A stretch of 64,000 bases of DNA. Source: Clostridia bacterium (GTDB taxonomy: Bacteria > Bacillota > Clostridia > Christensenellales > Borkfalkiaceae). Both the position numbers and the translations under genes were made by a program. The notes beneath the pieces were generated by a model. That model was not told where the DNA came from. It made no database searches and saw nothing but the letters and a program-made list of their open reading frames with translations. This document shows positions 2,101 through 60,333 of the stretch, one piece after another. The stretch's first letter is position 1, and the number at the start of each line of letters is the position of its first letter. Location: the NCBI GenBank assembly GCA_029060985.1, contig JAIDSX010000064.1:1838-65837 (forward strand). The letters are read 5' to 3'.

Positions 2101-3608
2101 TAAAGAATTTCGAGATTTTTATGGAAATTGCGTTTGAATTCGCCGTTCACCGCCATTGCCTGATGAATTTCCAGCGTGGCGTCGCCCGCAAGCTCCGTCT
2201 TCATAATGACGGAATCGCCCAACACGTCGCAGTTGATGCCCGTGACCATGCCGAGCCCGCTCCTGTCGAGGCATTCGGCAATGCGCAAGAGAACGCCCAG
2301 CTTTTTCACGACGTCCAGATCCTCGTCGGTGACGATATCGCGGTATCTTGCCCACTCCGCCGCGGGAATATCCTCTTTGTGATAGCACCCCGCCACGAAC
2401 GCCGCCAAAACGATTTCGCGGTGCGTTGCGCCGTAGATACAGGAATTCATGATCATGTAGCGCGCGTGCTGGGCGTTGCCGTAGTAGCGCATACCCTTAC
2501 CGCACTCCGCAAGGCTTGCCGCGATTTTGAGGATCTTCAAATAGACGCGCGGGAATTTATGAAGCACCCGAAGCTGCTTGAAGAGCTGAATGGAGAGGCG
2601 CACCGTCTGTTCCGCATGCTGCACGTTGCAGCCGTAATATTTAACGAGCGTGTTCAAGGAATAGCTCATCACGTCGGTGATGGGGCGTTCCATCGTCATG
2701 GGCACGGCCTGGTTGAACATAATGCCCTCTCTCAGTCCGCTGCCGCCGATCGTGAAGGATTCGATATTCAAATACTTTGTGAACGCCTTGATAATGGCGA
2801 GCGCGGCGGGCATAATGTCCGCACGGGCAGGGGAAAGCCCCCTGATCCTCTTGCGCTTCTCCACGTCGAGATCGCGCACCATTTCGTATTCGGCGTTGAA
2901 ATCCTCCGTTGCGAACTGGTAGTTGTGCAGGCTCGCAAGCGGATATTTTTTGACGACGCGGTTGATTTTATACAGGTTTCTGAACGACCCGCCCACGCCG
3001 ATCATCTGCGTTTCGGGATCGATGTCGTTCAGCCAGTCGATCTTCTTGAATTGCTCGGTGAAGAACTCTTCGATACGCTCCGTCTGGTCGCGGGTAGAGC
3101 CGTCGTCCTTAAAGAGATCGGTCAAGGTGACCGCGCCGAAGCCGAGCGTCACGAAATTGAGAATGGTGCGGCGGTTGTAGTAGACGATCTTCGTGCTGCC
3201 CCCGCCGATTTCGAGAATGATTCCCTTGGGAATATCCATGGAATTGATGACGCCGCGGTAGACGTAAGTCGCCTCCTCCTCTTCGGAGAGAACGCTCACT
3301 TTAATCCCGCAGGTCGCCTGAATTTCATCGAGGAAGGAACGCTGATTTTTGGCGCGCCGAACTGCCGCCGTCGCAACGGCGATAATGCGCGTGACCTCTC
3401 TTGCGTCGCACAGGCGCTTGAACATTTTTAAGGTTTTTATGGTCTCTGCTACGCGTTGGGGTTTCAAAAAGCCGTCGCGGTCCATATCCTGACCGAGACG
3501 AACGCTCTCCTTCATTTCGTCCTCGACCATAAAGTGCTCGTCAAAGAGCTTTACGATCACGAGGCGTGCAGAGTTGGAGCCTAAATCGATAATACCGATT
3601 TTTTCCAT
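2100..3608 (-). CDS. Ppx/GppA family exopolyphosphatase / guanosine pentaphosphate phosphohydrolase
   Basis: 502 aa. N-terminal IGIIDLGSNSARLVI ASKHA-fold motif and a C-terminal HD-like helical domain. Confidence 0.85.
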   Translation of the reverse strand: MEKIGIIDLGSNSARLVIVKLFDEHFMVEDEMKESVRLGQDMDRDGFLKPQRVAETIKTLKMFKRLCDAREVTRIIAVATAAVRRAKNQRSFLDEIQATCGIKVSVLSEEEEATYVYRGVINSMDIPKGIILEIGGGSTKIVYYNRRTILNFVTLGFGAVTLTDLFKDDGSTRDQTERIEEFFTEQFKKIDWLNDIDPETQMIGVGGSFRNLYKINRVVKKYPLASLHNYQFATEDFNAEYEMVRDLDVEKRKRIRGLSPARADIMPAALAIIKAFTKYLNIESFTIGGSGLREGIMFNQAVPMTMERPITDVMSYSLNTLVKYYGCNVQHAEQTVRLSIQLFKQLRVLHKFPRVYLKILKIAASLAECGKGMRYYGNAQHARYMIMNSCIYGATHREIVLAAFVAGCYHKEDIPAAEWARYRDIVTDEDLDVVKKLGVLLRIAECLDRSGLGMVTGINCDVLGDSVIMKTELAGDATLEIHQAMAVNGEFKRNFHKNLEIL

Positions 3609-51935: not shown

Positions 51936-52565
51936 TTATGCCTCTTTGCGTTTTATGGGAAGGTTGGTGATTTTGTATTCCTTCAAGCACTTATCGCGCA
52001 TTTCTTCGTTGAACACGCCGTTCGTCAAAAGATACTCGCACACCACGTCGCGCACGCGGTCCTTTTCAAAACCGAAACCCATGACGTTTAAGAGATTATT
52101 CACGTCCGCCTGCTTCATGCCCGTGACGAGCGCCAGCGCAAGCACCAGATTCTTTTCGGGATACAGCTTTCCCTTTACGATTTTTTTCCAATATTTGGGA
52201 GAAATATCCAGCTTTTCGCCCGCGCTTTCGGCTGTTTCGCCCGCACGGGAAAGCGCGCCCTGTAAAAGTTTTGCGAAGGTAAACTTGCGGAAGGGATCGC
52301 GCATACTGTCGCGGAAGGAGCGGAAAGAAAAATTAAAGGTAAATTCGGTGTCCGCAAGCCCCTCTTTGAGGCGGGCAAGCAGCTCCGACTTGTTCTTCTG
52401 ATGGCTAAGGCGCATGACCTCGGAATTCTTGCGTTCGATATTGCCGTCCGCGCCGACCGAAACGACCTCGGGCATTTCGTAGCCTTCGAGCGCGCTGAGC
52501 TTGACGTAATCGGAATACTGCGCGCAAAAATATTCGTCGAGTGAAGTTAAATATTGCGTTTCCAT
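51936..52565 (-). CDS. Hypothetical protein with a possible C-terminal HTH; first gene of the cysS-alaS-maa operon
   Basis: 209 aa from ATG 52565 (METQYLTSLDEYF...). The segment ISPKYWKKIVKGKLYPEKNLVLALALVTGMKQADVNNLL looks HTH-like. A TG-extended TACAAT ends 11 nt upstream of the ATG. Confidence 0.5.
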   Translation of the reverse strand: METQYLTSLDEYFCAQYSDYVKLSALEGYEMPEVVSVGADGNIERKNSEVMRLSHQKNKSELLARLKEGLADTEFTFNFSFRSFRDSMRDPFRKFTFAKLLQGALSRAGETAESAGEKLDISPKYWKKIVKGKLYPEKNLVLALALVTGMKQADVNNLLNVMGFGFEKDRVRDVVCEYLLTNGVFNEEMRDKCLKEYKITNLPIKRKEA

Positions 52566-52826
52566 AATCGGAAAATATTGTAACACGATTCCGCGCAAAA
52601 CGCAAGCAAATTCCCGCGGGACAGGGTGAAATCGCAAGGAAATGAAAAAATATCAGTCTGATTTGAAAAATCGTGAATTTTTTACAAAAAATACTCCGAA
52701 AATGAAAATTTTTTTACGAAAATTAAAAATTTATTGAATATTATATTGCTTTTTCACAAAAATTATGTTATAATTTCACACGGGCGAGTCGGGGGAAGCG
52801 CCACAAAAATAAGGAGCATGTTTATT

Positions 52827-53595: not shown

Positions 53596-53626
53596 AAAAA
53601 AGCGCGGTGCAAACCGCGCTTTTTTT
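53596..53626. terminator. Bidirectional terminator
   Basis: aaaaaagcgcggtgcaaaccgcgcttttttt. Confidence 0.8.
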
Positions 53627-53837
53627 AATAGTCCGAAAGTCCTAAAACGTAATTGCTCGAAACGTCGAGCACGGCGCAGAGCTTGGCAAAGGTGTCGAGC
53701 GCGGGAAACACGTCCGCCCTCATGTACTTGGAAACCGTCTGCGCCGAAACGCCGATTTTTACCGCAATTTCCTTTTGCGGAATCCCGCTCCCCGCAATGC
53801 ACTCCCGCATTCTTTTTTGAATATCCTTTAACTCCAT
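53625..53837 (-). CDS. Small XRE/Cro-CI family HTH regulator
   Basis: 70 aa from ATG 53837. IPQKEIAVKIGVSAQTVSKYMR is a classic HTH_3 motif. Confidence 0.85.
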   Translation of the reverse strand: MELKDIQKRMRECIAGSGIPQKEIAVKIGVSAQTVSKYMRADVFPALDTFAKLCAVLDVSSNYVLGLSDY

Positions 53838-53870
53838 AATATTTCCCCCATATATATTAACAAAAAAAAT

Positions 53871-53917
53871 ATCGCACATTATACGATATTTTGCTTGACA
53901 ATCGCATAATATACGAT
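53871..53917. promoter_or_regulatory. Two 17-bp near-identical operator-like sites (ATCGCA-N5-TACGAT), 30 bp apart
   Basis: atcgcacattatacgat at 53871-53887 and atcgcataatatacgat at 53901-53917. Each is an imperfect inverted repeat. The second fills the spacer of the + strand promoter. The first overlaps a TATAAT on the minus (XRE) side. Confidence 0.6.
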
Positions 53918-53923
53918 TATAAT
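53895..53923 (+). promoter_or_regulatory. Consensus promoter divergent from the XRE gene
   Basis: TTGACA (53895-53900), a 17-nt spacer, TATAAT (53918-53923). Confidence 0.7.
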
Positions 53924-53929
53924 AGGGGA

Positions 53930-54053
53930 GGTTTCTGCAATGCGAGATTTATCCCTTTGCAGGAAAAGCGGCACGGGCAACTTGAATTTCTCCCCCCTTT
54001 ATAGAAATTCTCTCGTACCACGGGACGCGCGGCGAAATGCCGCGCGTTTTTTT
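53930..54053 (+). ncRNA. Candidate ~124-nt sRNA with C-rich loops (RsaE/RoxS-like architecture)
   Basis: Consensus promoter at the 5' end and a + strand-specific terminator (cgcgcggcgaaatgccgcgcg ttttttt, 54026-54053). There is no downstream + strand gene. Stem-loop 1 is 53932-53965 (loop contains UCCC). Stem-loop 2 is gaatttct/agaaattc 53984-54010 (loop CCCCCCUUUAU). Confidence 0.4.
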
Positions 54054-54058
54054 ATAAC

Positions 54059-54088
54059 AAAAAAGCGCGGTGCATACCGCGCTTTTTT
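54059..54088 (-). terminator. Terminator after pckG
   Basis: Minus strand: aaaaaagcgcggtatgcaccgcgctttttt. Confidence 0.8.
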
Positions 54089-60003: not shown

Positions 60004-60333
60004 GTGGCTAAACGCTGTTTCCGCCTGAAAAAAAATAAAGAAATCGAAAAAGTGTTCAAAAGCGGAAAGCGAGCGTTTTCTCAAACGATAACGCTCGTAT
60101 ATTTTCCTGCAAAGGAAACAGAGTACGCGGTCTGCGTGGGAAAGAAGTATGGAACAAGCGTTGAAAGGAACAGAATCAAGCGGCTACTTCGGGAGGCGTT
60201 CGCGGAGTACGGCAAAGAGATCAAGCCGTGCAGAGCGCTCCTTATCCCGAAAGTCGGAGAAGCGTACGAGCTTGCTGCTTTCAAACGCGATCTCAAAAAA
60301 ATCTTCGAACGCGAAAAGATCTTTGAAGGTTGA
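60004..60333 (+). CDS. rnpA: Ribonuclease P protein component
   Basis: 109 aa, GTG start 5 nt after rpmH. Contains the RNR-type motif VERNRIKRLLREA. Confidence 0.9.
   Translation: MAKRCFRLKKNKEIEKVFKSGKRAFSQTITLVYFPAKETEYAVCVGKKYGTSVERNRIKRLLREAFAEYGKEIKPCRALLIPKVGEAYELAAFKRDLKKIFEREKIFEG

Follow-up and report, generated by a model that had tools for sequence, protein, structure and literature searches.

The locus considered here lies in a 64,000-nt stretch of DNA (hereafter the window) from a Clostridia bacterium (assembly GCA_029060985.1, contig JAIDSX010000064.1), in which two divergent transcription units fill the 433 bp between the terminator of a deoR-like gene (53596-53625) and the terminator of pckG (54059-54088). 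One of these units is xre, coding for a small helix-turn-helix (HTH) regulator of the XRE family, and the other, on the + strand, holds a structured RNA instead of a protein gene and proves, on comparison with relatives, to be a member of a small RNA (sRNA) family whose putative repressor is the adjacent XRE protein (Table 1). The layout described in an earlier note on this DNA, which comprised the XRE open reading frame (ORF), two 17-mers, a promoter, an ORF-less unit and a one-way terminator, was found correct at all its coordinates.

The + strand unit, with an inferred start around 53930, is 124 nt long and closes with a GC-rich hairpin and seven U's; the stem of this terminator spans approximately 54023-54046 and the T7 run 54047-54053, and the opposite strand shows no U-run. 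When folded, the segment 53930-54053 reaches -43.7 kcal/mol (z = -3.2), a value that none of 200 shuffled sequences equals. The two hairpins proposed in the earlier note both appear in this computed fold. More precisely, P1 pairs 53932-40 with 53957-65 around the 16-nt loop AUGCGAGAUUUAUCCC, after which UUUG opens the 3' arm, and the inner stem of P2 pairs 53984-91 with 54003-10 under the loop CCCCCCUUUAU (53992-54002), which is the most conserved element of the family. In addition, P2 has an outer stem (53970-77/54012-19) that had been missed. The exposed C-rich loops that had been pointed out find their place in a predicted structure that covariation supports, the P1 loop bearing UCCC and the P2 loop C6.

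Table 1. Features of the xre-sRNA locus, in coordinates of the window
Feature	Position	Strand	Remarks
xre	53625..53837	-	70-aa Cro/C1-type HTH regulator; HTH domain alone, without sensor domain
xre Shine-Dalgarno (SD) region GGGGGAAA	53842..53849	-	read from the sequence; complementary to the UUUCCCCC-type sRNA loop
operator O1 ATCGCACATTATACGAT	53871..53887	.	lies 33 nt ahead of the xre start codon; autoregulation through this site is presumed
sRNA promoter, TTGACA + 17-nt spacer (= O2) + TATAAT	53895..53923	+	12/12 consensus
operator O2 ATCGCATAATATACGAT	53901..53917		promoter spacer
sRNA 5' end and hairpin P1	53930..53966	+	transcription start inferred at ~53929-53931; minimum-free-energy (MFE) and centroid fold
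P2, outer and inner stem, loop CCCCCCUUUAU	53970..54019	+	fold; compensatory changes
sRNA intrinsic terminator, GC-rich stem, loop GAAAU, U7	54023..54053	+	sequence, fold, covariation
bidirectional terminator of convergent pckG	54059..54088	.	outside the sRNA

Conservation and distribution of the RNA

A DNA search of relatives covered 36 genomes of the same genus and retrieved xre together with its control region from 23 of them, the similarity mostly ending at the -10 box. None of the 14 loci that were read past the promoter has a gene there; each has a stretch of 115-130 nt, and the 14 homologues, folded independently by MFE, take the same three-part shape, with the C-run in the apical loop of P2. 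Besides, some 50 of the 64 loci recovered by a pattern scan for the promoter with its operator, described below, carry the RNA.

To evaluate covariation, 47 distinct sequences were aligned with MAFFT without regard to structure, the consensus being taken from the individual folds. The consensus pairs are standard in 85.3% of the cells of this alignment, as against 34-47% when the partners are slid by 1-3 columns, and double-sided changes occur in 34 of the 38 pairs; none of 500 shuffles reaches any of the five measures used. All nine pairs of P1 (helix 1) carry such double-sided changes, compensatory changes are present in 10 of 11 and 5 of 7 pairs of helices 2 and 3, which form P2, and the terminator (helix 4) is 95.5% paired, with 10 of its 11 pairs covarying. 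The sole invariant columns of the alignment are two C's of the loop C-run, the two flanking C's being at least 90% conserved. As for P1, its loop sequence GCGAGAUUUAUCCCUUUG is retained in 5-6 species despite differing stems, and variable P1 loops tend to be C-rich, with UCCC in the subfamily of the window and CCUCC in another one.

Taken together, covariation in all four helices and the lack of a conserved reading frame indicate a structured non-coding RNA gene, and comparison at the sequence level shows that purifying selection maintains both the structure of this RNA and its C-run. The sRNA interpretation put forward in the earlier note thus rests on evidence well beyond what had been available to it, and an orphan, terminated, non-coding unit behind a promoter that carries an XRE-type operator is supported. 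Several general hallmarks of a trans-encoded base-pairing sRNA are found here, namely a promoter and an intrinsic terminator of its own around a short unit devoid of conserved ORF, a conserved structure backed by compensatory changes and a conserved single-stranded seed.

With the covariance model of the family, the copy in the window scores 59.5 bits (E = 2e-9). Matches at E <= 1e-6 were obtained in approximately 52 of the 130 species genomes of the genus that holds Candidatus Gallimonas merdae, a count to be taken as a lower bound because of incomplete metagenome-assembled genomes (MAGs) and strict filters, and no match was obtained in 150 other genomes of the order, covering 96 other genera and 42 families. 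Within the genome of the window, the search for further copies returned weak terminator-like matches only, and an apparent second copy in another genome (G022) proved to be the end of a gene followed by a terminator. The RNA family is real, is restricted to one genus, comes with a dedicated XRE repressor and is apparently undescribed.

Three further loci deserve a mention as regards the RNA itself. The homologue of genome G035 (L004/L026) is usable only up to the P2 loop, approximately 125 bases from within the sRNA onward being N. In genome G007 (L017, ~1674-1760), the start region of xre runs straight into the 3' half of the sRNA; a deletion of approximately 150 bp, comprising the operators, the promoter, P1 and the 5' half of P2, lies between two copies of CCTCCCCC, one copy representing the sRNA loop and the other being complementary to the xre SD. 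Finally, the 3' part of the sRNA (P2 3' arm GTTCACGGAA and terminator) is tandemly duplicated in L082 (~3400-3520, minus strand).

The control region, its regulator and its genomic setting

The sRNA promoter, with TTGACA at 53895-53900 and TATAAT at 53918-53923 on either side of a 17-nt spacer, is the sole 12/12 sigma-70 promoter of the region, and the 17-mer of O2, ATCGCATAATATACGAT, coincides exactly with this spacer. The palindromes O1 (ATCGCACATTATACGAT) and O2 are 30 bp apart from start to start. Three matches to the 17-mer pattern occur in the window, for 0.02 expected, and none was found elsewhere in the 1.5-Mb genome with up to one mismatch, so that no wider XRE regulon is apparent there. 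A scan for the promoter with its operator in one genome per prokaryotic species returned 64 loci, all belonging to uncultured gut Clostridia, to MAGs labelled Christensenellaceae and to Candidatus Gallimonas merdae, with rabbit, mouse and chicken as hosts. Over 63 loci, the consensus reads TATCGCAcAaTgTGCGAT for O1 and AATCGtAtATTatgCGATTA for O2, and the 30-bp spacing is kept in 62.

The xre gene, whose SD GGGGGAAA lies 5 nt ahead of the ATG, is the only regulator gene at the locus. Its product belongs to the Pfam family HTH_3 (PF01381; 36.5 bits for a cut-off of 23, 4.9e-9), and the nearest solved structure is the Xre-family regulator of ICEBs1, 7t8i (E = 6e-6). Against the NCBIfam subfamily models all scores stay below the cut-off (RstR, 34 against 80). 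A role as a member of a defence system was considered and rejected, PADLOC having given generic, sub-threshold HTH matches only. XRE orthologues that are 68-84% identical occur in all sRNA loci, and the sRNA-linked XREs form a single group (support 90/90) separate from the XREs linked to protein cargo. Given that the protein is devoid of sensor domain, relief of repression must come through dilution, proteolysis or some partner.

The arrangement of the two operators had been read as a classic two-operator switch. With a single regulator there is no toggle of the CI/Cro type: a bistable lambda-type switch takes two antagonistic, divergent repressors, and the + transcript has no conserved ORF. 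As far as the DNA shows, a single autoregulated repressor would shut both divergent promoters. A TATAAT overlapping the first 17-mer on the XRE side, also reported earlier, does exist in the window, but no -35 box stands at a suitable distance from it and other species do not conserve it.

Nearly all RNA-bearing loci show the succession deoR-like gene, xre, sRNA and convergent pckG, with PckG proteins 81-95% identical; some of them contain additional genes or have the module in inverted orientation. This nearly constant placement between deoR and pckG marks the locus as inherited chromosomal DNA and not as a phage or mobile element. The term 'phage-like', used in the earlier note, consequently fits the layout only: the cassette is present in 0 of 2.9 million viral contigs, the locus is syntenic across the genus, and the closest phage repressor is 36% identical to XRE. 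In the same line, a prophage or mobile element was rejected, as there are no genes of phages or of integrative and conjugative elements nearby. The locus is an ancient part of the chromosome in one genus, passed on vertically, and many members have lost it.

The pckG terminator (54059-54088) and the deoR terminator (53596-53625) match at 29 of 30 positions as direct repeats, and the two copies bracket the xre-sRNA module. This 30-nt repeat is limited to the species of the window, the terminators of relatives at both sites being unrelated, and it looks like a recent local copy or conversion, not like an insertion scar. The insertion of a mobile module marked by the repeat was accordingly rejected, since relatives hold the module at the same site between unrelated terminators.

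Two observations on the neighbourhood can be added. On the minus strand of the window, 51936-52637 encodes a 233-aa protein with a weak HTH_31 match, which is found beside the deoR-like gene and cysS across the genus. Moreover, the closest relative (G009, L003/L054) has approximately 1.3 kb of extra DNA between the sRNA and pckG that is absent from the window and on which lie another XRE-like gene, 52% identical, and a pair of small ORFs, cysteine-rich by eye.

The same promoter can also drive proteins. In approximately 13 loci from other Christensenellales (L025, L030, L031, L038, L048, L057, L060, L061, L066, L069, L071, L075 and L081), an SD and a protein gene stand directly behind it instead of the RNA, and the xre genes of these loci mostly use SD sites of the GGTGA type. 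Judged by eye, the cargo includes leucine-rich-repeat lipoproteins of 700-900 aa, small membrane proteins with SHOCT-like tails and zinc-ribbon proteins. These loci show that the cassette made of XRE, operators and promoter is a working portable module of which the RNA is one cargo, and the presence in some MAGs of two loci with the same operator (L025 and L060; L030 and L057) implies a small regulon. In L025, the 3' part of the operator and the -10 box (ATTGTACGATTATAAT then AAAAAAGGTAG) are tandemly repeated just downstream of the promoter, the repeat forming a second partial promoter copy.

Proposed mechanism and alternatives

The anatomy of the locus suggests the following scheme. The perfect sigma-70 promoter would make the RNA with no need for an activator, and XRE dimers would bind the two 17-bp palindromes, which lie 30 bp apart on the same face of the helix. 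A palindrome filling a promoter spacer occupies the textbook position for occlusion. XRE bound to O2, between the -35 and -10 boxes, would thus shut the sRNA promoter, and XRE bound to O1, ahead of xre, would limit its own synthesis. Once derepressed, the RNA may, by analogy, pair its C-rich loops to G-rich ribosome-binding sites and block translation without Hfq (neither Hfq nor CsrA gave a homologue by tblastn). The xre mRNA, with its rare GGGGG(A)AA site, could be one of the targets, in which case a mutual-repression loop would arise. That 53862-54053 forms a self-contained gene pair in which XRE represses a trans-acting, SD-targeting sRNA is the reading that we favour and regard as fairly probable. 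Where the transcript begins and ends, its repression and the way it acts are deduced from anatomy and comparison, for an RNA gene whose structure and selection are established.

The link between the loop and xre was evaluated against a background formed by the 1206 start regions of the window genome, among which GGGGGAAA occurs in 0.4% and GGGGG in 5.7%. The SD of xre is of the GGGGG(A)AA type in 77% of the sRNA-linked loci, compared to approximately 6% of the background. Besides, ranked against the background for pairing with the cognate sRNA loop, the xre start regions have their median across loci at the 2nd percentile, whereas the start regions of deoR (42nd percentile) and pckG (61st percentile) of the same loci show ordinary pairing with the loop.

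Several observations weigh against the favoured reading. Regarding the targets, the xre start region of the window itself ranks only 138th of 1206 for pairing with the loop, and 23% of the sRNA loci have lost the G5 SD yet keep the C-loop, meaning that the feedback is not obligatory. Since the loci are orthologous, which inflates the counts given above, the G5 SD may be inherited rather than selected. When both loops were compared to the 1206 start regions, no trans target stood out; the loops find their best predicted partners in ordinary G-rich SDs that are statistically undistinguished. Regarding the locus, the xre promoter cannot be placed with confidence, and the U-tract behind the 3' hairpin is broken in approximately one third of the homologues, whose transcripts may stop at the following terminator. 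Finally, approximately 60% of the searched genomes of the genus gave no confident match, which indicates that the RNA is dispensable.

The genes of these best partners are presumably lipoprotein, glgA-like and pyrR-like genes, to go by their N-terminal sequences. Likewise, nothing stands out when the whole genome is searched for an extended match complementary to the conserved P1 loop. Elsewhere in the window, 60102-60115 is a 14-nt perfect complement (TTTTCCTGCAAAGG) to nt 25-38 of the sRNA, for approximately 0.05 expected in the window; it sits in a coding sequence that we take to be rnpA, involves the P1 stem and is probably due to chance.

A more ambitious version of the favoured reading is that XRE and the sRNA repress each other at two levels, XRE acting on the sRNA promoter and the C-loop covering the GGGGG ribosome site of the xre mRNA, which would make the 430-bp cassette a minimal protein/RNA toggle in which heritable ON and OFF states are possible in a gut commensal, and that the sRNA is a de novo cargo of a repressor cassette which elsewhere, by eye, drives surface-protein genes in the same slot. 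We put this forward tentatively, as a possibility that has the odds against it.

Less likely still is that the RNA acts locally only, with the xre mRNA as its sole important target, two stable states and an output through another XRE-controlled item. The SD of xre is unusually complementary to the loop, the operators are found nowhere else in the genome, and the deletion via CCTCCCCC in G007 shows that the complement of the xre SD and the loop are the same 8-9-mer on one strand. However, the lack of any other XRE site in the genome, which may be taken in favour of a local switch, would also leave such a loop without output. The absence of the G5 SD from 23% of the loci and the modest rank of the window pair (138th of 1206) argue in the same direction, and the conserved P1 loops, including those of the CCUCC type, suggest further targets.

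We grant about the same limited chance to the RNA binding or titrating a protein, for instance a KH-domain or poly-C-binding chaperone such as KhpA/KhpB-Jag, or acting as a sponge. No evidence points to any protein partner, even though a jag gene was read in the window by the earlier note and neither Hfq nor CsrA was found. The most conserved element, a short apical C-run on a long rigid stem, would suit recognition by a protein, and no convincing mRNA target was found; nevertheless, the C-rich loops of characterised Firmicute sRNAs pair with G-rich mRNA sites, and the differences in P1 loops between subfamilies are easier to explain by changing RNA targets.

An action in cis on the convergent pckG, through read-through antisense RNA or transcriptional interference, is very unlikely. 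The sRNA does face the 3' end of pckG in most loci, and some homologues lack a good U-tract, but the window has a strong U7 terminator backed by a second terminator, several species have 0.6-4.8 kb of other genes in between or an inverted module, and the conserved loops and helices would be left unexplained.

An even smaller probability is attached to a small protein encoded by the transcript, be it the 60-aa ORF from 53940 or a shorter peptide. The earlier note had judged this ORF unlikely to be coding, rightly so, since its ATG is peculiar to the species of the window, where AGGGGAGG precedes an ATG by 8 nt; relatives have AUAGCGAG at this position, and the nearest of them read AUAG, with no ATG. 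In addition, the SD-like run lies at or before the transcription start, the frame reads through two terminators and no Pfam match was obtained. A frame of at least 15 codons starting with ATG is present in 21 of 46 homologues; those of other species have no SD, begin in the P2 stem and lose register between close relatives through 1-nt indels, the recurrent ATG in P2 belonging to another subfamily and lacking an SD, and the substitutions compensate for RNA pairing. An RNA of a type I or type III toxin-antitoxin system was also considered and rejected, with no conserved ORF, antisense overlap or tandem repeats.

Just as improbable is a decaying remnant, that is, a repressor cassette that has lost its protein cargo and makes a functionless RNA. 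Compensatory changes in four helices and a conserved C-run over approximately 50 species demonstrate selection, and there is no trace of a cargo ORF; what such a remnant would account for is the existence of related cassettes with protein genes, the lack of a confident RNA match in approximately 60% of the searched genomes of the genus and the partial deletion in G007.

Relation to known RNAs and significance

That the RNA is an orthologue of RsaE/RoxS, the redox and central-metabolism sRNA of Bacillales to which the earlier note had likened it, is rejected as far as membership goes and is the least credible of all these proposals: two unpaired C-rich motifs, a similar length, a terminator and the listing of RF01820 over 53942-54052 would agree with it, but this match has 16.0 bits for a gathering score of 79 (E = 5.3) and ranks below many terminator-driven chance matches in a permissive scan, in neither the window nor ten diverse homologous loci does any Rfam 15 family attain its gathering score, the RNA family is confined to one Christensenellales genus, and its promoter bears XRE operators. 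Searches of the literature found no XRE-linked C-rich sRNA for these bacteria.

The resemblance to RsaE/RoxS is thus one of kind only, the RNA of the window having several unpaired C-rich regions, a trait of the RsaE type. RsaE/RoxS and the staphylococcal UCCC-motif RNAs pair C-rich loops with G-rich SD regions, and RsaE/RoxS is controlled by ResD/SrrA and Rex and has its targets in the tricarboxylic acid cycle and in redox metabolism. Like RsaE/RoxS and the UCCC-motif sRNAs of Firmicutes, the present RNA is approximately 100-120 nt long, has its own promoter and terminator and exposes C-rich motifs in hairpin loops; like RsaE/RoxS, it belongs to an Hfq-independent setting, where, by analogy, pairing with G-rich SD regions would be the likely mode of action. 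In contrast, it has no homology to RsaE/RoxS in sequence or structure, combines a long bipartite stem and a single apical C-loop with a variable 5' hairpin, is found in one Christensenellales genus and is linked to a divergent, dedicated XRE repressor rather than to ResD/SrrA or Rex. Among the papers on RsaE/RoxS (PMC6158497, PMC5419742, PMC8216469), one contains the statement that RsaE acts via direct interactions with G-rich motifs (PMC6158497).

6C RNA (RF01066) from Actinobacteria and sX13 from Xanthomonas (PMC3771888) likewise function through C-runs, which their hairpin loops present to G-rich mRNA motifs. Their sequences and taxa are unrelated to ours, and they have two or three equivalent C-loops where a single one is invariant here; no match to 6C RNA was obtained in the window even at E <= 10.

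As for the control region, a small XRE-family HTH protein, palindromic operators over divergent promoters and presumed autoregulation are shared with the Cro/CI-type immunity switches of temperate phages and of integrative and conjugative elements, such as lambda OR and ImmR of ICEBs1, from which the present locus differs by one regulator instead of two, two operators instead of three and an RNA cargo. In E. coli, oxyR-oxyS and gcvA-gcvB are divergent pairs of a transcription factor and an sRNA. The present pair resembles them in that the sRNA is divergent from the gene of its controlling factor and shares control DNA with it. However, OxyR and GcvA are LysR-type activators with sensor domains, whereas here a 70-aa, HTH-only putative repressor is found; in addition, the spacer of a perfect promoter is taken up by the operator, and feedback of the sRNA on the mRNA of its regulator is possible.

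Almost nothing is known about the RNA regulators of uncultured Christensenellales, which are common in animal guts, and the present locus provides a well-delimited, covariation-supported sRNA family that is missing from Rfam. As its dedicated factor and operators can be read from the sequence, the system lends itself to reconstruction and testing in a laboratory host, with no need to culture the organism. Besides, one promoter and repressor cassette that carries either protein or RNA genes offers a clear case for studying the origin of sRNA genes. Finally, if the pairing between the loop and the SD of xre holds true, the locus would rank among the most compact mixed feedback switches described.

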